64,000 bases of DNA from Isurus oxyrinchus. Taxonomy: Eukaryota. The notes beneath the pieces were generated by a model. That model had not been told where the DNA came from and ran no database searches. It worked only from the letters and a program-made list of their open reading frames with translations. Made by a program: the position numbers and the translations under genes. Of this stretch, positions 3,901-64,000 are shown piece by piece. Where the stretch lies: NCBI GenBank assembly GCA_026770705.1, contig JANJGN010000140.1:186001-250000 (forward strand), given 5' to 3'. Positions within the stretch are counted from its first letter, which is position 1. Every line of letters starts with the position of its first letter.

Positions 3901-4026
3901 GTGCAAATCAACTCGGCCCCGCGAAAGTATTTCAGTCCAGCTCTGAGGTCCGGTCTCCCATTGCAGTCCAGGGCTGCAGTCTCCAGCTCCCCGTCATATA
4001 AACCCTCAGCTGCAGGCAGCAGAACA
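3901..4026 (+). promoter_or_regulatory. Promoter of NAR-type V1: octamer-like GTGCAAAT (3901), conserved block, CGTCA half-CRE and TATAAA (3997-4002)
   Basis: The block TTTCAGTCCAGCTCTGAG...GCTGCAGTCT...GTCATATAAAC recurs in front of all three NAR V leaders (here, 9248-9843 interrupted, 63707-63803). The TATA lies about 25 nt before the ATG. Confidence 0.65.
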
Positions 4027-4069
4027 ATGGGAATCCTCCTTGTTTTCACCCTGTGTGTCTGTTTCCCCC
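4027..4069 (+). CDS. Leader exon of NAR-TCR V1 (MGILLVFTLCVCFP, phase 1)
   Basis: ATG at 4027, hydrophobic signal peptide, GTGAGT donor at 4070. Splices in frame to the acceptor TTTCCAG ending at 4217. Confidence 0.92.
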
Positions 4070-4217
4070 GTGAGTACCGATCAAACAAACCGAAATTGTG
4101 TGGATTCAATATAAAGCTGCCCGAGTCCATCCCAATTACAGACACTGTCTGGGGTTTTGACCTCGTTCTCTGGTTCGACGCCGATTGTCCATTGAACTCT
4201 CTCTGTTTAATTTCCAG

Positions 4218-4500
4218 GATCTTTCAGTCAGTCAGTGACACAGACCCCGGCAGCGGTGACCAGGAAGGAGTGTCAGTCTCTCACCATCACCTGTGTTTTC
4301 TCCGGTGCTTCGGGGCATTATTTCCAAACGGGACATTTCTTCAAACAAACCCAGATCGGGACAGAGTGGGAGCGGATTTCCAGCGGGGGGAGATTTGTTG
4401 TGTCGGTGAATAAAGCACAAAAGACATTTTCGCTGGAAATTCGGGATATGAGAGTTGAAGACGCCGCCACCTATTACTGTAAAGCTCAGTACTACACATA
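4218..4500 (+). CDS. NAR-TCR (IgNAR-type) V segment V1, unrearranged, open frame
   Basis: SFSQSVTQTPAAVTRKECQSLTITCVFSGASGHYFQTGHFFKQTQIGTEWERISSGGRFVVSVNKAQKTFSLEIRDMRVEDAATYYCKAQ. It shows the VNAR hallmarks of a short FR2-FR3 with no CDR2, a GGRF motif and YYCKA, plus an extra FR1 Cys (4271-4273). An RSS follows. Confidence 0.93.
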
Positions 4501-4538
4501 CACAGTGATGGGCCTCGGCTTCCCGCGATACAAAAGCT
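4501..4538 (+). other. 23-type RSS of V1
   Basis: CACAGTG + 22-nt spacer + ACAAAAGCT. Confidence 0.88.
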
Positions 4539-4865
4539 CTCACTGCAGATTATCACAGAAACAAATGAAAAAGCGGAGTTAATCTGCAGTTAAAGCCCCA
4601 CAGTTCCGCCTCACACCGTCTGCCCCACAGTCTAGTTTATAATGAGACTGGATTATTGCCGTTAACATCTTGAGTTTTATAAATGCCCAGTGTGTGCGGA
4701 TGGTGATGCCTTTCCTGGGATTGGTGTCAGTGAATGGGGATTGGGAATGACTGATCCCAGTTAGAAACCCCTAACGCCAGATGTGATCCTGGTCTAACAG
4801 CTGGAACCGGGAACGGCAGTCCCCGCTGTTTAACTAATGTCCCCAAATCTTACCAAGTGCCCGAG

Positions 4866-4938
4866 GGATTTTATGCTGACTTGTAACACTGTGTGGATGG
4901 ATGGGGGAGTCACAGTGGGAGAGACCTGAACAAACACG
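4866..4938 (+). other. D segment (coding 4894-4910, TGGATGGATGGGGGAGT) flanked by 12/12 RSS
   Basis: GGATTTTAT-12-CACTGTG on the 5' side and CACAGTG-12-ACAAACACG on the 3' side. All three frames are open (WMDGG, GWMGE, DGWGS). Confidence 0.88.
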
Positions 4939-5253
4939 TCTGTATAATTTAAATATAAATTCTCCGGGCCTGGATAGTGAATTGTCGGGTTAATGTTATT
5001 ATCGCTGGAACCTGGTTCCATTTCATTGTAATTTCCAACATTGAGTTATCTTTCTTTGATATTTTTCTCAGTTTATATGAAGCGAACATCTCGTTTCCGG
5101 GATCATTTACTCAGAGCTCAGGGCCTCACAAAGAACAGTTTGAACCGACAGAGACTTTGAAACATTGAATATTGCTTATTTATTTAAATCCGCTGAATAA
5201 TTGGGCAGTTTCTACTGTCTGATGATGATTTCTCGGCAGGTTGAGTTATCGGT

Positions 5254-5292
5254 GGTTGTTGTACAGGGGAGATTGTGAGCGGTGTCACTGTG
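5254..5292 (+). other. 23-RSS of NAR-TCR J1
   Basis: GGTTGTTGT + 23 nt + CACTGTG. Confidence 0.9.
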
Positions 5293-5345
5293 GTGGGAAA
5301 CTGATTATGCGGATGGATCCGGGACAGTGGTGACTGTCACAGCCG
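5293..5345 (+). CDS. NAR-TCR J segment J1 (WETDYADGSGTVVTVTA, phase-1 donor)
   Basis: G-x-G-T-x-V-T-V motif, upstream 23-RSS, GTAAG donor at 5346. Confidence 0.92.
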
Positions 5346-6189
5346 GTAAGTAGTTCCAAACCCCGCCGGGTTATAGCCTGTCCCGGGTAACGTTCACCAT
5401 CAGTTTATTATTGATATCAGTGGAGTTTGGGTGGGATGTGGGAGTTGACAGGATCTGGACCATTATTGGTTTAATGGGCACATCGGGGACAATATCAACA
5501 TCACGGACTCTCACACTCTGACTCGCTTTTAATGAGCGCAGATTGTCGACAATCCGGACTCCACTCCCGGTGCTAACTGTGACCGACGGAGCTCTGTCTG
5601 TCCCTTAGAGCCCGGGAGCGGGGTCACAGAGCTCTCTCCTGGGCAGCAGATTGCATTCCGAGCCGCGGAATGAGGTACCGGGTGAATAAACTGAACACAA
5701 CTGCGGCCAGTTCGGATACCTGCAGCAGCTCGTTCCATACCTGACCCGGGAGAAAAACGGGAGAGTGAAACAACGGCCTTCAGATATAAGAAATCCTGAT
5801 ATGGGTCCAGATGGAATTTTATTATTGGACAATCAGTGACTGAAATTAGTGACATTGTCCCCGCCATTTCTTTCATATAACCAAACACTTTCCTACTTTT
5901 CCGCCCTCAGACTGAAATGTGTAAGTTTGGAACTGCAGCCGCTTCTCTATATTGAATGTAAATGTTTGAGAGATGGGATTGCTGAAATGTATCTGTATCC
6001 CTGATTACTGTGAGTTGAAACAACACAGTGCAGTGAGACAGAGAGGATGATGCATTAATCTTATAAAGGAGAACAGGAACATAAGGAAACGATTGTAAGT
6101 TGTAAATTGGGGGGAATGTTCATTTAGAAGCAGCAATAAATAATTCATCGAAAGCGGGAGAAGGATTGGTGGATCTCTGGCCCAGTCAA

Positions 6190-9843: not shown

Positions 9844-9886
9844 ATGGGAATTTAATTTGTTTTTACCCTGTGTGCCTGTTTACCCC
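9844..9886 (+). pseudogene. Inactivated leader exon of NAR V2
   Basis: ATG GGA ATT TAA places an in-frame stop at 9853-9855. The donor has degenerated to GTGGCT, versus GTGAGT in V1 and V3. Confidence 0.9.
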
Positions 9887-10034
9887 GTGGCTACCGATCA
9901 AACAAACCGATATTGTGTAGAATTAAGATAAAGCTACCCGAGTCCATCCCAATTATAAACACTGTCATGAGTTTTAGCCCCGTTATTTGGTTCGGCTCTG
10001 ACGGCCAATTAAACTCTTTTTGTTTAATTTCCAG

Positions 10035-10379
10035 GCTCTTTCAGTCAGTCAGTGGTACAGACCCCGGCAGCGGTGACCAGAAAGGAGTGTCAGTCCCTCA
10101 TCATCACCTGTGCTTTCAAAGGTAATTCTCATCGTTTAGAGGACGGACAATTCTTCAGACAAACCCAGACCGGGACTGAGCACGAGCGGATATCCAGCGG
10201 GGGGAGATTTGTTGTGTCAATAAATAAAGCAGAAAAGACTTTTTCGCTGGAAATTCGGGATGTGAGAGTTGAAGACACGGCCACCTATTACTGCAAAGCT
10301 CAGTATAAATATGGATGTGGTTCCCTTTGGAAAGATGGTTCTGTAGACGGATCCGGGACAAAGGTGACTGTCACAGCTG
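10035..10379 (+). CDS. Germline-joined NAR-type VDJ exon (V2), open frame, phase 1-1
   Basis: SFSQSVVQTPAAVTRKECQSLIITC...YYCKAQYKYGCGSLWKDGSVDGSGTKVTVTA. V runs directly into J with no RSS. The acceptor TTTCCAG (10034) and donor GTAAG (10380) are intact. Confidence 0.92.
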
Positions 10380-13300: not shown

Positions 13301-14250
13301 TTAGAGAAAACTCCGCCCAGAGAACGCGGAGAAAATCAGTCAAAAGGCGAAAGAATTGAAATTGTCAGAGAGGCGGAAGAGGCAGTTCCCAGTGAGTAAC
13401 AGTAAAACCACTGCGGAAACTGAACAGACTGAAGCCAACCGACAACTGAAAGAGATTGGGACAAGTTCCCACGATTGTAAGACGTACAAATAGTGCAAAA
13501 TAAATGTAAAAATAAAATGAAACTAACTATAAATATTTCAAATTAAAGAGAAATGGGGAAACAGAGATTAATCGAAGAAAATAAACTAATAGACCCAAGA
13601 GCAGATGGAAGCAACTGAGAAGTGTTAAACTGCAGCTAATGGGTGACATTTCACCATCGATATTCACTATCTGTTTGACCCGATTGGTGCTGCCGAATTG
13701 CAATCGCATTCTGTTGAATCTTGCTGTGCGCAGTGATGCGTTATATCTGGGTCACTGTCTGACAAATAGTTTTTGGAAACTGACTGTTTCACTGTTAATA
13801 AGAAGTTCCCTCGGGGTTGTCTCTCAGCAGGGAAAATAAAAACACATCTAATATACATAATAGAACCATTCAGCGCGGAAGGATGACATCCGGCCCATCG
13901 TGTAAGTGCTGTCCCTTTAAAAGTGTAATCCAATTGTTCCCACCACTCATGCATATTCTCCATATTCCTGCATTTTTTCTGCTTCAGAACAGATACATCA
14001 CCCGTTTGAAAGTTACTACTGAATCTGTTCCCAAAACCCATTCAGATAGTAAAGTCCTGATCGGAGGAATTCGCTATGGAAGAGAAAATATCATCTCATT
14101 CCCCAGTTGACCATAGTTCAGTAACAATGAGCAGCGTTCGAACAGGCTTCAAATCGAGATAAAAAAACACAAAGCTGTTCGCGCGATTGACAAATTCCCC
14201 ATATCAGCAGTAGCTAAACAAAAACAAAATGTTCATTTTTCACCCTTCAG

Positions 14251-14556
14251 GTTCCCGTCTCCTGATATTCCAGAATCCGCCTTTACAAACCTCTGCTGCT
14301 GGTGACACCGTTACTTTAAGCTGTGAATATTCAGGTATCTGTCAGTACACAGTACACTGGTACCGTCAGTCCCCAGGACAGGCTCCGGAATATCTGCTTC
14401 AGAGACACACTTCAGGAGAGGAGAATAAAGAAAATGCTGTCGGGGAGAGAATTTCTGCTTCTATCGATTCTGCCAAGAAAATCAGCCGGTTAATTATCTC
14501 CAAACTACAACTGAGCGACTCCGCTGTGTATTACTGTGCACTGAGTCGGCGCAGAG
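14251..14556 (+). CDS. Leaderless supporting TCR-delta V segment of NAR-TCR
   Basis: SRLLIFQNPPLQTSAAGDTVTLSCEYSGICQYTVHWYRQSPGQAPEYLL...SDSAVYYCALSRR. It has TCR alpha/delta V motifs, an extra CDR1 Cys (14340-14342) and a phase-1 acceptor CCCTTCAG. I see no upstream leader exon. A perfect 23-RSS follows. Confidence 0.9.
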
Positions 14557-14595
14557 CACAGTGATACAGAGCATGGAGAGAGCTGTACAAAAACC
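14557..14595 (+). other. Consensus 23-RSS of the supporting V-delta
   Basis: CACAGTG + 23 nt + ACAAAAACC. Confidence 0.95.
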
Positions 14596-15007
14596 TGAAC
14601 ATGGTGGGAAATACAGACACACAGTGATAACAGAGCACGGAGAGAGCTGTACAAAAACCTGAACATGGTGGGAAATACAGACACACAGTGATACAGAGCA
14701 CGGAGGGCGCTGTACAACAATTTAACATGATGGGATTAGAGGCACACAGTGATACAGAGCACGGAGAGAGCTGTACAAAAACCTGAACATGGTGGGATTA
14801 CAGATACACAGTGATACAGAGCACGGGAGGGAGCTATACAAAAATTTAACGTGGTGGGATGAGAGACACACAGTGATACAGAGCATGGAGAGAGCTGTAC
14901 AAAATCCTGAACATAGTGTGATTACAGACACATAGTGAAACAGCACGGAGAGAGCTGTACAAAATCCTGAACATCGTGGGATTGCAGACACATGGAGATA
15001 CACAATG
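14557..15007 (+). repeat. Tandem array (~62-bp unit, ~7 copies) of the 23-RSS
   Basis: Heptamers at 14557, 14620, 14684, 14745, 14807, 14869 and 14931 (CATAGTG). Each is followed after 21-24 nt by an ACAAAAACC-like nonamer. Confidence 0.93.
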
Positions 15008-16029
15008 CATGGAAATTTGGAGAACAAATATTGTTCATGAATATATTTTCAGTGGCTCTTACAACTTTACAGTACAGAATGAAGTGATTAAACTCATTAA
15101 ATCTGCATTTCCTTCTCGCTCCTTATAATTCTTGGTATCTTCTCCTGTCCAATTCGCCTTCAAACATAGTTCATGAAATTATTCCACATTCTCATCTCCC
15201 TTTTCCTGGAAAAATTCATAATGTACCGATTTGTAATCTAGGGTGAATTTATTGCCGCCTTTTACCTCAGATAACAGCAAATTAGTTTCTTTCCCTTTTG
15301 CTGTTGAAACCGCGTTTCCTCGTTTGACTTGATAAACCTTCATCATCTCCTGTGATTTCCAGCTTTCGGGCTACAATCGGCTGCGAGATTCCGTCCGCTC
15401 GAGGGAACACGCAAGAGACCGGGCAGTTCCCAGCTGAGGGTAGTTTGGGTTTGGATTCACTCCACCAATTATCTTTCCATGGAGGTCAGCATCTCCCACA
15501 ATTACCGCAGCTGGGAAAGGTCCCTTTGTGTTCACGGGCCGCGCTGCAGTGGGTGAGAACATGCGTACCTCAACAGTGATCCCTCTTAAAATAGGGCCGT
15601 TCTATCTTAATAACCGGCTGCATTTATGTAGAGGTTATGACCCACAAACATTGTTGAATGCACTTTTCACTAAGATGATGGAAGTTTGCCCCTTGGAATC
15701 GACGACCCCCCAACACTTTCCATCAGTCACAGCACCATGATTGGCCAATTCCACCATTGAATCAATGGCTGGGCAGAGCCACTGCAATATGGTTGACCCT
15801 TAAACTCCCTCGCAAATGGCCCAGCACGCCACTCAATTCAAGGGCAATTAGAGATAGGCAACAAACGCTGGCCTTGCTAGCGACGCCCACATGCCATGAA
15901 AGAGTAAATTTCGTGTTTCCTGTCCATTTATTCTGTTAAAGGCATTCCTTCAGTTCTTCCATTTTCTCACCTCCTTCCTATTTAAGGATTTTTTGTTTCT
16001 CAAGTAGAAAATATATAGAATTATTAAAT

Positions 16030-18562: not shown

Positions 18563-21177
18563 ATGCACGGGTCAGTGAATGGACCTGTCTATGCTATTTA
18601 CTATCCTGTTCTCGCTGTTATTAGTGTCCAGGGTAAGTTATAGACTCCAAATTAATTATTTACTTTCTTTTAAGTCGCCAGAACACTTGTGCCTTAGATT
18701 TCGGGAAGGGTCTTTTTTTAATATTCAGCGCTCTGTTTGAGTTTAAGGAACGTCAACTGTGTTCCTGTATAGAGGTGCAGTATATGATATTGTACTGCAT
18801 TACGGTGACTTATAGTTTATGAATTCCACTTGCATGATGTAGCAGCACAAGATATTATTCAATGATCTATGGTGCAAGTTTATAGAAACAGCGTCTGTTG
18901 GGTTGCTGAATTATGAAGTATAATGTATGAAAATGTATGGACAGTATTACGTTACATTGTTAAACATTAGCTTTCATTCCAATGTAATAAAATGCATTAT
19001 AGCGTTTTTAACATTGTATGGAATAATGGCGTATCACAGAGTATTAAACATCATTGTCGTGCATTTATTTTATTACAATGATTTACACTGATTCTTTACA
19101 GTGCAATAATTACACTAGATGCATTGTGATATAAATTGTACACTCATTAATTGCAGGAATCAGCAGTGCAACCTCTGGAAGGAAGTAGTATTTTTCATTT
19201 ATTATTATGCAGTAGAATATAATATTTATTTATTACTGTCGTTGGCAAGGTCAAAATTTATTGCCCATCCCTCGTTTCCACTTGAGAAATTAGAGTTGAG
19301 CTTTTTACTTCAACCTCTGCAGACCGTTTGGTGAGGGAAGGTGCTTCACAGCAGATTTAACAAACAAAATTTGATATCAACTACATAAGGAGAAATGAGG
19401 ACCGATAACCAAAAGCTTCATCGAATGAGTAGGATTTGAGAATCGTCTGGTAGAAAGAAAGAAAGGTGAAGGATTTGAGGGAGGGATATCCAGACATTAA
19501 GGCCACGGCAGCAAAAGGCAACTTCGCCACTGGTGGAACATTTAATTTCTGGGGTAGACAAGATTATAGATATTGGCTGTGAGCAAAACGATGTTAGAGG
19601 GTTACTGGAGTAAGTAATGGCGAGGCTATGGGTGGATTTGAAAGCAAGGATGAGGAAACTAAATTCAAGGTGTTGCCAGGCTGGGAGCCAATGTAAGTGG
19701 GTGAACACAGGGCTGGTGGATGACTGGGACTTCCTGTGAATAGGAATATCCCCACCAAGTGCTTCAGATGAGTTTAAGATCACTGATGACCTAAAGTGGG
19801 AGAACGCCAAGAGACTATTCCAATTGTTGGCATCTAGATGTTACAAATGTATGGGGAAACCTTGAGCAGCTGCTAACCGAAGGCAGGTTTTGGAATGTGT
19901 GATATTATGGTCGATATTAGAAATGTGGAAGTGACCAGTCTTTGTGCAGGATGATCATCATAGGGCGGAGGACGTTTGGAAGCGCAGCTCTGGCTCGAAC
20001 AGGTCGCCAAGATTGTAAAGGGCCTCAAGCCTCGGTGGATGGACTCAGTGGTGAGAGAACAGAGTTTTTAATGGGGATTGAAGGCAATGTCTTCTGACTC
20101 TCAAATGTCTATTGAATCAAATATGCACTTATCCAGAATTGGATGCCAAACAAGCAGTTACGGCTTTGGAATGGTTGGAGTCAGGAGGTGGCACAGGCAC
20201 GGGTGAGGACGGCTTTTTATTAACAAGTTGCATGAGGCAGCAGCTGGTGTTTGCAGTTCACTCGGTAACATATCTCTCTTTTCCTTCCTCACAGTCAACA
20301 TGGTGGCGATCATAATCTTATCCCGTGGCCGGTGCGGGCTCTCCCAATGCATCACCTATTACCTGGTGCTGATAGTGGTGACAGATTTCCTGGTCATCAT
20401 CACCGCTGTCACATTGAACCGGATCAGTGGCATCTACTTTCGTGAGAGTGTCCTCTTCACCACCCCAGGGTGCGCTGTCAGCACCATGCTCGTCTATGCC
20501 ACACGAGATGGCTCAGTCTGGCTGACCGTTTCGTGGCCATCTGCTGTCAGAGCCTGAAGGCCGGATACTGCACTGAGAAAACTGCATCACTGGTTATAGG
20601 ACTGGTCAGTGCCCTGAGCTGTGTCAAGAGCGTCCCTTTCTACTTCAGCTACCAGCCCTTGTATATTCTGGACGGGGTGCCTTAGTTCTGCAACATCAAG
20701 TCCACCTATTACACATTGCCCATCTGGCAGGTCTTTGACTGGCTTGACCGCATCTTAATCCCCTTCCTCCCGTTCCTCCTCATTCTGCTGCTCAATGCAC
20801 TGACCATAAGGCACATTTTAGCGGCCAGCAGAGCTCGCAGGAGGCTCCGGGGAGCCGAGAGTCACAGAGATCCAGAGATGGACAACCGTAAAAGGTCCAT
20901 TGTGCTGCTCTTCGCCATCTCCCTCAACTTTCTCCTCCTGTGGGTCACCTATGTCGGACATTTCCTGTACGTGCAGATTACAGGTGAGGCATATTTCACT
21001 GGCCTGGATTTCAATGACCCGCAAGTCATCTTTCAAGAGACAACCAACATGCTCCAGCTTCTCAGCTCCTGCACCAATGTTTTCATCTATGCAGTGACCC
21101 AGACCAAGTTCGGAGAGCAGTTGAAGAATATGCTGAAGTGCCCTTCCGCCACCTTCACTGCTTCATTTAATTGGTGA
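18563..21177 (+). pseudogene. GPR139/GPR142-like rhodopsin-family GPCR pseudogene (exon 1 18563-18632, exon 2 20295-21177)
   Basis: Exon 1 MHGSVNGPVYAIYYPVLAVISVQ|GTAAGT splices to VNMVAIIILSRGRCGLSQCITYYLV. Motifs DRFVAIC and NVFIY are present. A frameshifting deletion lies near 20525 and a TAG at 20683. Confidence 0.85.
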
Positions 21178-21566
21178 AAGAGCAATAAAATATTTGTATC
21201 CTCCCTTTAAGGTTCAACTTCTGTCTCAGTCTCATATTCTTTCCTCTCCATTGGAGTGTTTTGGTGTGTACCACTTTATCTCTCGTAGCCGAATCGGAAA
21301 GTCCAAGGCTCAAGCCCCGCACTCCAGAGGTGCAAGGCCCATCCCCAGTGCTGAGCGCCCAGACTTTCCTGTACTGAAGGAGTGCTGCACTGCCTGAGGT
21401 GATGTCTTCCCTGATCAAACTCTGAACTGAATCCACGACTGTCCTCTGAGATGGAACACAAATCATCCCCTGGTTACGATCATAGAGAGAACCCAGAGAG
21501 GTTTTCCCAGTATTTATCACTCAATTAACCCCACAAAAAACTATTTTATCCCATTGAGTTTGTGAA

Positions 21567-29894: not shown

Positions 29895-29933
29895 AGTTTT
29901 TGCACGGTGGTGAGATTGCTCCACATCACTGTG
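29895..29933 (-). other. 23-RSS of the minus-strand V pseudogene
   Basis: On the minus strand: CACAGTG + 23 nt + GCAAAAACT. Confidence 0.85.
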
Positions 29934-43935: not shown

Positions 43936-44926
43936 TTTGTCGGAGCTCCCACTACAATTTTTTTTTCAGCTCAGATGGCAGCGCCACAAGTAACCCTTCC
44001 GTAGGGAAGCAGAAGTTCAAGAACTAAGACTTAATTCATATTCTAAAATAACAGACTCTGCGCAAATTGACTTTAATCCTAAATCCACTAAAACTCACTG
44101 TCACGCCCCCTGTTAACAATTTTAATACTCATATAATTTTCCGCGTCTTTAACAGTGACATTTGGAGAGCTTTTCAACTTCATTGATGCAACTGCCACCT
44201 ACTGGAAATAAGCCAGGAATAAATGTGCATCTGTGCCAGCGGCGGGAATGCTGGCCGAGTGGACTCACAGCGGCCAGGCCAGTTCCCTCTAATCACTGAT
44301 GGTGTGATATTGTCCGAAGAGGATATGGCATGGGGCTGACACAGCTCCATTCCTATGTGTGTCTTAGGGTGAAATAGTTCATTTTGCTGCTGTGCTGGTT
44401 AAGGTTTTTTCCACAGTAGAGAAGTGGTCGGTCCTCACGTTGGGACTTGTGAACAGGGATGTGTTTCTCTGTTTATTTCTGTCTGGTTTTAGCGCTCACT
44501 GTGATGTTAATGCACATGTGGAATCCGAATGAAAAAATAATGATCAGGTTTGGTTAAGGGACGAATGTTTCTAAATGTTCAAGTTTTCTTCCAGCCAACA
44601 GTTCCAGCGGGTGTTCTGTGTGTAAACAGTATTTGGACAGGACAATGGGGGAAGGAGAAGGAGAAGGAAGGTGATGCTGGTTTGTCATTTTAATACAGCA
44701 GATATTGCCCATTACCTTTTCTTGTGCTGGCAGTTTCCTGGTCGGGCTCCAGTCAACCTGTTGCTTATTGTCCAATATGTCGCCTTATGAGCCAATTTCA
44801 CGAAGAAGGGACTTATAAAAAAGCTGAGAACAGAGGTCACGGTTCCGCTGGGAGTTTCTGGGTGGAGCTGCCAGAGGTCGCCGTTTATGACTGTGCTCTG
44901 AGACCCTCAGATAAACAGTTCAATTG

Positions 44927-45269: not shown

Positions 45270-45480
45270 CCAGCTGACGTCACACTGACCTCCGAGTGAC
45301 GTCGTAGAGACAAAAAAGCTGACGTTCACATGTTCACAGGCTGACGTCACAAGGCAAATGCTCTGAAGCATGCGCATTCCCCTCCCCCATGCCCAATCAA
45401 TGTCCATGCTCCCTCGCAGCTTCACTTTGTGATCGCAAGTCCGAGTTCCAGAGATCAGAGGGCGCCCTCTGCTGGAGAGC
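45270..45480. promoter_or_regulatory. Candidate promoter/enhancer: CRE cluster, NRF1-like site, palindromic CTCF-like motif
   Basis: TGACGTCA x2 plus two variants, GCATGCGCA, and CAGAGGGCGCCCTCTGCTGGA. Confidence 0.45.
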
Positions 45481-59060: not shown

Positions 59061-59596
59061 AGAGAGTCGCAGTGAAGCAGGGGAACGAAAGAATGAGATA
59101 AAGAAAGAAAAAAAGAAAGAAGAGAGAGCCTTGAACGACTACAGGATTTTCCCAAAGTGCTTTACTGCCAATTAAGTGTTTTCCCATTGTAATGAAGGAA
59201 ATACTTCAGCAAATGTGCAGAGCAATATTTCACAAATGTAATTGAAAAGTACTCAGATAGCTGGTTTCAACTGGTTTAAATGAGGGGCAGTTATTGTAAG
59301 AAGCTGGGGAAAGCTCCTCCTGCTCATTTCTGAAATTCCGACTGTGGGTCATTACATCGATCTAAGAGAGCAGATACTCACAGTGGTTTAACATCTCATC
59401 CAGAAACGCAACAATTGTCTTAGCTCAGTATTCCTTCAGGGACACAGTGGGACTATCGGCACTGCAGTATGGGCCTGAAATCTCACAGATCCGGGAGCGA
59501 GAACCCAGCACTTTCTAATTATGGAGAGAGAGAGTGTGCTACACATTGAACTACTCTGATGGAAGTGAAATAACGCGAAGAAGTTTTAACGTTTGT

Positions 59597-60498
59597 TTAC
59601 CGTTTAAACCAGCCAGTGAACGTGGTGACCGGCCACATCAAAACCTTCCTCAGCTCCTCTCGGAACTTCTTCTGGGCCACCGCATAGATGAAGACGTTGT
59701 TGCAGGAACTGACTAACTGCAGCATGTTGGCTGTCTCCTGGAGGATATACTGCGGGTCATTGAAGTTCATGCTGTTGAAGCAGCCCTTACTTGTAATCCA
59801 CACGTAGAGGAAATGTCCAACATAGGTGGCCCACGGGAGGAGGAAGCTGAGTGCAATCGCAAAATGCAGGATAATGGATCACTTACGATTGACCATCTCA
59901 GGGTCTCTGTGACTCTCGGCGCCCCGGAGCCTCTTGCGGGCTCTGCTGGCCGCTAAGATCTGTCTTACGGTCAGGACATTGAGCAGCAGGATGAGGAAGA
60001 AAGGGAGAAATGGGGTTAAGATGCGGTCCAGCTAGTATTAGGCCTGCCAGGCGAGGAAAGTGAAATAGGTGGATTTGAGGTCGCAGAACCAGGGCACCCC
60101 GTCCAGGATGTACAAAGGCTGGCAGACGAAGTACAAAGGGACGTTCTTGACGCACCTCAGGGTACTGACCACTCCTATAACCAGCACCACAGTTTTCTCG
60201 GTGCAGTATCTGGTCTTTAGGCCCTGACAGCAGATGGCCACGAAACGGTCGATGGTGAAGGCGACTGTCAGCCAGACTGAGCCATCTTGCATGGCAAAGA
60301 CCAGCATGATGCTGACTGCGCTTGCTGGGGTGGTCGACAGGACACTGTCACGAAAGTAGATCCGGCCAATCCGGTTGAGGATGGCGGCAGTGATAATGAC
60401 CAGGAGATCGCTCACTGCTATTGCCACCAGGTAGTAGGTGATGCACCGGGAGAGTCCACACTGTCTTCGGGATAGGATTATGATCACCACTACGTTAG
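59597..60498 (-). pseudogene. GPR139/GPR142-like GPCR pseudogene, main exon
   Basis: NVVVIIILSRRQCGLSRCITYYLVAIA..AFTIDRFVAICC..NVFIYAVAQKKFREEL with internal stops near 60038. Paralog of 20295-21177. Confidence 0.85.
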
Positions 60499-60803
60499 CT
60501 GATAGATGAACGTGAGGGATAAAAAGAGTGAGATGTTACCGAGTGAACTGCAAACACCATTTACTGCCTTATCCAATCAGTTACTGATCCCCTCCTAATC
60601 CGTCCCTTTGCCATCTCTAGACCACAAATCTTCAAAAGCCATTGGTAATTGTAAAACATCCAATTCTGGATTAGACGTGTGTCAATCCAGAAGGCATTGC
60701 AATCCGTTCCCACCACAATCTCAGCTCTCTCGTCACTGAGTCAGCCCAAGGCTAGTTATCCAATTTCAGTTCATCTGAGACAGCTGCCGATACCCACATT
60801 CAT

Positions 60804-61590: not shown

Positions 61591-63706
61591 TATTACACTT
61601 GATGTCTTATAGGATTATAGACAAGACCTCCTGCAATGACAACCGAGAGGGAGTCTAACATAATACTATGAATGGTGTGATCTCGGCAAGTCATTACTGG
61701 ACATGGCTTAGAAGAATGCAGCAGTAAATGAGACAGGGTCAATGTGATATATATGCGTCACCCAATGCAGTAATAACTTAATAACCGGTGCAATCTAAAT
61801 AATGACATGGTCTAGCTTAATGTTGGCAGACGCAGGATTGAGTGTAGTATAAACAGGGATATGATATGTTGTAATATACACTGTAACAAAGATGAACAAT
61901 GACATTGTCTAGAGGAGTAATACTAACTTAAAAAAGGTCTAGCGTAATGGAAACAACCGCATAGACATCGACATAGACATAGAAAGGGACTCCTGTCATA
62001 TAAACAGAGACAAGATCGAGTGCAATAACAATTGAGACAGGGTCAATTGCTATACAGCCAGAGATAGAATCTTGTGCAATGATTACTTGGATAGATGGCC
62101 ATTTTATAATCAAGAAGTAGTGGACTAGAACAATCATAATCAGGCCCTGGTGAAACAGTAAATGAGACAGAGCATACTGTAATAATCAAGGAGCCAGAGA
62201 CTAATGAAATAATAGTGAGGCTCTGTAGAAACATAACCACAGGCAGAAAGTAATGTGGTAATCGAGGAGACAGGGACTAATGAAATAATAAACAGGGTCT
62301 AGCCAAATATTATCAGAGTCACACCGATGTCTATCTATCAACGACAAATGGCAGAAAATAATAATCAAGACCAGGCAACACACTAACAGAGGCAGAGTCT
62401 CGTGCCACAATCAAGGGCAGGATTAGTACAATTATAATCCGGACCTGTTGAAACACGAACAGAGGCTCAAACTTCATTGCAAGTTTAATCTCACGATTTA
62501 GTTTCTGCGCAAATGGTGCCTAAAGCTATGACTTCTCTGGTAAGTTCCATGCTGATCTGTAAATCGCTCGGCAGGAAAACGGGTATTTAAAATTTGAGAT
62601 AAGCAGTTGTTTTGCCCAGAGATAAAACAGTAACCAATTTATAACGAACCTGGTGGATATTAGCACAAAATGGTAAACAACGGGCACTATGATGAGAGTC
62701 ACGTATTTGGGTGAATATTTGGACATTGCGGACGCCCTGTTTGCTGGAATGTCAATAAGAATATCGAATATCGACTAGTTCTGTGTGACTTCCCGTCTGC
62801 CTTGCTTGTGCGCCGCACAGTCAGCCTTTTTTGTGCGGCCAGACGCTATCGGGAATTCCCCGTTTTTTCCGTTATTGACATGTCTAGGTCTGCCTGTAAT
62901 ATTGCACAGTCCCTTTCCCATGATCTCTGTCATGTCCTGGATTCTTTACTCGCAGACTCTGTCACTGTTAATGATAAGTCTGAATATTACAGAACTGGAA
63001 ATCAATCCTCACTGAATTGAATCATCATTTTAAATGCAAAACAGAGAAGGGAAGCGTTTGTTTAAATGAGAGAGGGGTGTTGTTTTTCGCGTATGTTGTA
63101 TATATCTTCCTGGATGTTGTCAATGGGCTGTATCATATTGCAAGCTGATCATCAGCTGCTGGACTGAGGTCAGGCATTTAACCCAGATCCCGTCAACTCC
63201 TTCAGGGTGTTAATGAATTCCCTGCAGTATTGCAATGAGTGGAAATAAGACCACACAGTAAATACACATGGAACCACCTCCCAGCTCCTTACTACAGGGG
63301 GAAGGAGGGCAGCAGCACCTACTGACAGAACCACACCCATCTCACACCGCCCTGTTCAACAGAGAAATGTGAAGGGGATTTAACATCCAGCTCCAATGAA
63401 GCAAGAGATAGCTGTAAGCTTCCCTCATTCAGCCTGAGAGTTATTCACACAACACACAACCAGAGACCGTGTATCCGTGCGGCCCACCACTGATCTCGCG
63501 GACACTGCCCTCTGCAAATCAGCATTAGCCCACATTAAGCAGGGCATCCCAAACTGCGTGTCACGCGACACCCAGTGGGGTTACGAGGCCGGATTCGTGG
63601 GTCGTGAGTTCCGAAGCAGCAACAGACTGAGTGCAACAGCTCCGCCCCCTTTGAACCCTTGATTTAATTAAATGGCAGGCGTGGCCTAATTTTCGTGCCT
63701 AAAATC

Positions 63707-63803
63707 TTTCAGTCCAGCTCTGAGGTCCGGCCTCCCAATGCAGTCCAGGACTGCAGTCTAGAACTCCCAGTCATATAAACCCCCAGCTCCAGGCAGCAGA
63801 ACG
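63707..63803 (+). promoter_or_regulatory. Promoter of NAR-type V3 (TATAAA 63774-63779)
   Basis: Homologous to 3930-4026. Confidence 0.65.
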
Positions 63804-63846
63804 ATGGGAATCCACTTTGTTTTCACTCTGTGTGTCTGTTTACCCC
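63804..63846 (+). CDS. Leader exon of a third NAR-TCR V (MGIHFVFTLCVCLP)
   Basis: Intact ATG and GTGAGT donor; intron homologous to that of V1. Confidence 0.88.
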
Positions 63847-63988
63847 GTGAGTACCGATCACACAAACCGACATTATGTGGATGTCATATAAAGCTGCCCG
63901 GGTCCATCCCAATTACAGACAGGGGGTTTGACCCGGTTCTGTGATTCGGCTCTGATGGTCCATGAAACTATCTCTGTTTAATTTCCAG

Positions 63989-64000
63989 GAGATTTCAGTC
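63989..64000 (+). CDS. Start of the third NAR-TCR V exon (runs off window)
   Basis: Acceptor TTTCCAG, then (R)DFSQ, homologous to the V1 and V2 starts. Confidence 0.75.

Follow-up and report, generated by a model that had tools for sequence, protein, structure and literature searches.

In a 64,000-nucleotide window (the whole stretch analysed) of the shark Isurus oxyrinchus, a V segment whose features mark it as a NAR-TCR supporting V-delta is followed by seven head-to-tail units built on a 23-RSS, although V segments normally have one RSS. The stack is not private to this locus. It is family-wide in supporting Vs and occurs in several sharks, with carpet sharks apparently included, judging by protein models that read through into the units. 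The stack is old and belongs to the supporting-V family as a whole, a point absent from the earlier sequence-only reading of this DNA.

The supporting TCR-delta V of NAR-TCR in cartilaginous fish was reportedly described by Criscitiello in 2006. The window holds such a V, with a NAR cassette and a germline-joined NAR exon upstream of it:

14251 to 14556, plus strand: leaderless NAR-TCR supporting V-delta exon (by its features), frame open, splice acceptor at 14250, phase 1, Pfam V-set E 8e-17
4027 to 5346, plus strand: unrearranged NAR V-D-J cassette, V with a single 22-RSS at 4501, D 12/12, J with a 23-RSS
10035 to 10379, plus strand: germline-joined NAR V(D)J exon, open, with intact AG/GT, phase 1-1, 89% to white-shark model P0124

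With its splice acceptor, its lack of a leader and a CDR1 cysteine (in CEYSGICQY), the V at 14251-14556 has the marks that passages of PMC1845163 give for NAR-TCR supporting V-delta, and on these marks it is an intact member of that class. Its nearest short matches are TCR alpha/delta Vs, and it is 65-94% identical to shark and ray protein models, the closest being from white shark and basking shark (85-94%; white-shark P0123 at 94%), which suggests a lamniform shark. Putative RNA contigs X19 and X20, which may be paralogues, carry J-like tails spliced before 14252/14288. The supporting Vs of cartilaginous fish are likewise leaderless, with a CDR1 cysteine, lie behind a NAR V-D-J and are rearranged separately, as portions of five papers describe them (PMC1845163, PMC5931798, PMC12227049, PMC6795676, PMC3457774); those portions mention no more than one RSS, whereas seven units are found here. 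In the upstream NAR Vs (4027-5346, 10035-10379), FFKQ/FFRQ replaces WYRK, and the WYRK tryptophan is absent. The germline-joined V(D)J (9844-10379 with its leader) has a stop at leader codon 4. Its exon could splice behind the upstream NAR V-D-J, giving a chain of two NAR Vs plus the supporting V, a layout that also appears in models P0123 (white shark) and P0130 (horn shark), both predicted models only. At 63701-64000, a further NAR V begins (promoter, leader, intron), 86% like the NAR V at 3924-4229.

The stack lies directly 3' of the supporting V-delta, where seven units of 60-64 bp span 14557-14990, each in the order heptamer, spacer, nonamer and a linker of 22-24 nt. Tandem Repeats Finder places a single array at 14557-14992, with a period of 62, 7.0 copies, 85% matches and a score of 612, and head-to-tail units of tens of bases are the layout of a minisatellite. 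The copies are as follows:

14557 to 14619, plus strand: copy 1, consensus 23-RSS CACAGTG-23-ACAAAAACC and a 24-nt linker, in-frame TGA within the heptamer
14620 to 14683, plus strand: copy 2, heptamer and nonamer consensus as in copy 1, spacer of 24 nt
14684 to 14744, plus strand: copy 3, heptamer intact, spacer of 23, nonamer ACAACAATT with 3 changes
14745 to 14806, plus strand: copy 4, 23-RSS of perfect consensus, then linker
14807 to 14868, plus strand: copy 5, heptamer intact, spacer of 24, nonamer ACAAAAATT with 2 changes
14869 to 14930, plus strand: copy 6, heptamer intact, spacer of 23, nonamer ACAAAATCC with 1 change, common to copy 7
14931 to 14990, plus strand: copy 7, heptamer CATAGTG with CAC lost, spacer of 21 nt, nonamer ACAAAATCC
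14991 to 15013, plus strand: worn half unit (heptamer and about 8 spacer bases) that terminates the array, found by self-blast

The sequence-only reading had given about seven copies at a period of about 62 bp, with perfect consensus in copies 1 and 4 and an in-frame TGA in the first heptamer. All of this holds: both copies are exact 23-RSSs, and the V ends in ALSRRRAQ and a stop. Its intact heptamers and 23-24-nt spacers in copies 2, 3, 5 and 6 also stand, but it left unmentioned the decay of the nonamer in copies 3, 5, 6 and 7. A CAC-led heptamer, a spacer of 23±1 nt and a consensus-like nonamer (0-1 change) are combined in copies 2, 4 and 6, partly so in copies 3 and 5, and not in copy 7. 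The heptamer-1 stop is nothing peculiar to this V, as most of 58 shark-type protein models end in it. Such signals are rare by chance. Six of the seven plus-strand RSS matches with an exact heptamer in the 64-kb window lie inside the array, against 0.11 per window in shuffles, and three matches are near-perfect, against none in 100 shuffles. Copy 7 is predicted to be dead as a signal, since it has lost the CAC that is near-essential to recombination according to passages of PMC2193808.

The copies are 73-97% alike, and their shared changes nest copies 1+2, 3+5 and 6+7 (copies 3 and 5 share 5 changes), as expected from unequal exchange. No further unit was found elsewhere in the window with nhmmer. 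The linkers of copies 1 and 2 contain GTGGGAA (14600-14612, 14664-14676), which we take to resemble RBPJ/Ikaros sites; the other copies have GTGGGAT. An origin of the array in a germline RAG cut is unsupported: the 5' edge coincides with the heptamer, as it also would under selection on the V end, and the 3' edge is inside a spacer. We also rejected the linker as a D segment. The X19 junction is like the linker for 9 nt, but there is no facing 12-RSS.

Short tandem repeats are generally error-prone in assemblies, and such an array could arise as an assembly artefact or if this locus alone had expanded recently. We give this explanation almost no credence. The copies differ by up to 27%, and among the 8 of 24 listed sequencing runs that were compared with the window, a 153-nt contig from another study is identical to 14906-15058 (X18 record 10). 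A private expansion is further contradicted by a 668-nt contig of a second organism, with five unit starts in a row (X7 record 16). Ends of supporting Vs are joined to a unit in 6, 9, 11 and 7 contigs of the four DNA runs (organisms A and B), which also hold many unit-into-unit contigs, and X19 record 13 shows a paralogous V, then an RSS, linker and a second RSS. The half unit at the array end looks intact in paralogues, with loose ends behind 14821 in all four DNA runs. One long array looks alike in all three samples of organism B. Skips in contigs may reflect either alleles or paralogues; such skip joints do not prove fewer copies. That the array exists only as an artefact is refuted, and the count of seven rests on the assembly.

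Protein models extend the stack to other sharks. Among the 58 shark-type models, the 25 with longer tails were tested, the others ending at the heptamer or being omitted. Twelve of these tails continue into unit 1 (p ≤ 0.01), and 13 are spliced elsewhere. Seven of the 12 extend for at least 11 residues past unit 1, and in each of them the extra stretch matches the array a second time, which none of 500 shuffles did; they come from three Hemiscyllium, two Rhincodon and one Stegostoma models and from P0164. The last has five copies, none of them at odds with intact motifs, and a protein search for others matching its tail returned only P0164 itself. Tails from Pristiophorus and Pristis show unit 1 and a similar linker and are too short to demonstrate a second copy (p=0.18).

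Stacking appears to follow the class of V. The window's other Vs (NAR V, IgH-like V, decayed V) have a single RSS. A metagenome scan gave 59 loci, at 29-44% identity apart from one 18-residue match at 89%, with no close supporting V among them. None of the 41 distinct V-type signals of these 59 distant loci, controls that are not shark Vs, is stacked; the lone second RSS among them is an unrelated 4-mismatch match. The unit pattern was absent from the genome contigs searched and the stacked pattern from viral contigs, as expected.

Which copy is joined? Two putative RNA contigs leave the germline sequence at 14556 and 14550 (0 and 6 nt trimmed), that is, at copy 1. The coding joint at 14556 is probably from this gene, since there is 1 difference in 97 nt; it is in frame, and its end resembles the J of model P0121. 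The 14550 contig, from organism B, has 7 differences and continues in frame. These rearranged contigs, with in-frame junctions of which one is J-like, end before the constant region. At later heptamers there were no loose ends among the 10 that are listed for RNA runs, with 39 others outside that list. The receptor joins observed were thus cut at copy 1, in a small, RNA-biased sample of two contigs at depth 2, from runs whose RNA status is guessed and in which non-productive joins are disfavoured. The sequence-only reading had argued that joins at downstream copies would be non-productive and would spare the upstream RSSs, and for copies 2-6 the sequence and established V(D)J chemistry bear this out.

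If extra copies served as RAG targets, their motifs might be spared. Of 26 distinct changes in the window's array, 1 is in heptamers, 8 in spacers, 4 in nonamers and 13 in linkers. The heptamer count is 1 vs 2.9 expected (p=0.19), that of the nonamer 4 vs 3.8 (p=0.68), and the two together give 5 vs 6.7 (p=0.30), so that motifs are not significantly spared. Across paralogues, where we counted a position as variable if a variant had at least a 2% depth share in the four DNA runs, variation affects 0 of 7 heptamer, 10 of 23 spacer, 3 of 9 nonamer (4 of 9 with indels) and 7 of 23 linker positions. The contrast of 0/7 in the heptamer with 20/55 elsewhere has p=0.055, a comparison that also takes in copy-1 contigs and edge effects. 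At the copy-2 position where CAC would encode His, all seven carpet-shark tails that reach copy 2 have Gln or Tyr, from which we infer that CAC was lost from copy 2 in carpet sharks, probably in two or three independent events. Signs of selection on the extra copies thus appear weak.

These patterns bear on two selective explanations. The extra copies may have been selected to bind RAG, so that a V which lacks a leader and probably a promoter, some 10 kb away from the promoter of the NAR V, is used productively more often. We regard this as possible though doubtful. Its appeal lies in the confinement of stacking to the leaderless class, with the other window Vs and the 41 control signals single, in the long persistence of the stack across sharks, and in RSS quality being tied to segment use in passages of PMC9723617 and PMC13433984. 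However, the class restriction amounts to one evolutionary event, and the nonamer is as variable as the linker, with single-base deletions in its A-run at a depth share of about 4-12% in all four DNA runs. The RAG-loading platform proposed in the sequence-only reading is therefore weakened, because the nonamer, the main RAG binding site according to excerpts of PMC9723617, is not preferentially kept.

Alternatively, D-proximal copies may be cut first, so that dead joins throttle or delay the V while copy 1 is left for a retry onto a further 12-RSS. This selected decoy or ratchet seems improbable to us. The geometry permits it, with a stop in heptamer 1 and all copies in the same orientation, and the heptamer, required for cutting, is the best-kept part in two lamniform-like organisms. 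Serial rearrangement at TCR-alpha and the many J segments of sharks, in the relevant portions of PMC5931798, offer a precedent. However, it is copy 7 and the half copy, nearest to D, that are dead, a retry requires a spare downstream 12-RSS while D-delta/J-delta lie outside the window, and contigs show no joins at copies 2-7, a weak objection in that contigs drop rare joins. The apparent loss of CAC from copy 2 in carpet sharks (7/7 tails) weakens the decoy and ratchet functions in any conserved form.

A role at the RNA level is also conceivable. Unrearranged alleles would give a transcript of NAR V plus supporting V that stops in heptamer 1, with the array as its 3' untranslated region. Contigs cover parts of the array in all three putative RNA runs, the heptamer-1 stop ends many RefSeq models, and two ATTAAA motifs just 3' of the array (15087 and 15096) could be a sterile-transcript end. 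However, the RNA status of the runs is guessed, and one contig includes intron, which leaves room for DNA carry-over; carpet sharks have a different stop frame, and the repeat itself is left unexplained. We consider this role very unlikely.

The explanation we prefer, at slightly under an even chance, is that the extras are loosely kept passengers, i.e., an old duplication in the supporting-V family, in flux by unequal exchange and weakly selected as RAG targets, with copy 1 as the cut site. A single duplication behind an ancestral supporting V would have spread via cassette duplication; since supporting Vs form one family, one origin suffices for the restriction of the stack to that class. 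Later unequal exchange, which the changes shared by copies 1+2, 3+5 and 6+7 would record, may also renew downstream copies from the selected copy 1. Copies 2, 4 and 6 would be bindable and sometimes cut by RAG. Joins there would be non-productive yet spare copy 1, and the resulting small cost would let lineages tolerate intact and dead extras alike. The drift of spacers in the array to 24, 24 and 21 nt counts toward this reading. Against it stands persistence from mackerel to carpet sharks, possibly also to sawshark and sawfish, which is long for a neutral 62-bp repeat: mackerel and carpet sharks are some 200 million years apart. Further points against it are the invariant heptamer across paralogues, the six of seven heptamers that are intact here and the five compatible copies of P0164. 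Perfect extra signals, if cut, should waste alleles, so their retention may mean a benefit. The functional readings taken jointly and the passenger reading have roughly equal odds; long persistence and the invariant heptamer are the main support for the former.

RSSs without a coding segment, or spare signals for a second rearrangement, are familiar from deltaRec, from the Kde/RS deleting elements and from the embedded heptamers of VH replacement. Those are single sites, whereas here there is a row of units and use of the extra copies is putative. Like a canonical single V 23-RSS, copy 1 abuts the coding end, and copies 1 and 4 are exact consensus; unlike it, the array has six more head-to-tail copies whose "coding flank" is non-coding linker. 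Passages of PMC2193808 (Cowell 2003) treat cryptic signals in VH segments and cryptic 23-RSSs in mouse gamma-satellite. The latter is also a tandem repeat, with units that RAG can cut. However, gamma-satellite is huge and independent of genes, with poor cryptic signals, whereas the array here is short, sits at a receptor locus and stems from a genuine V signal. In the portions of the literature covered, we found no description of stacked RSSs behind a V, and the text of the elephant-shark genome supplement (PMC3964593), possibly unreadable, gave 0 matches; the core NAR-TCR papers could already describe the repeat, and it may therefore be in print. A family-wide V-RSS layout with stacked signals is thus apparently undescribed.

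A V family whose members carry several near-identical signals at 62-bp intervals offers a natural test of how RAG picks between neighbours, by scanning vs diffusion and in cutting vs binding. It also bears on how sharks coordinate the two NAR-TCR rearrangements. If the stack is selected, it represents a new means of tuning gene-segment use; if it is a passenger, perfect spare signals are tolerated beside a working V. In either case, annotators of shark TCR loci should know of stacked signals.

The window has several further features. On the minus strand, 39187-37850 is an IgH-like leader-V-D-J cluster with D 12/12 and a weak V signal (CACGGTG, 3 nonamer changes), TAILV-like in the sense of the label in passages of PMC12227049. 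Decayed V-like segments lie at about 30400-29895 (minus strand) and 44585-44906 (plus strand), the first keeping a single 23-RSS at 29933. A heptamer pair at 59379/59443 was rejected as a stacked signal, being a chance match with unrelated spacers. At 45270-45350 there are four closely spaced TGACGT sites, presumably CRE-like. Finally, GPCR-like gene fragments at 20128-21190 (plus strand) and 59584-60674 (minus strand) form an inverted pair, about 79% alike.
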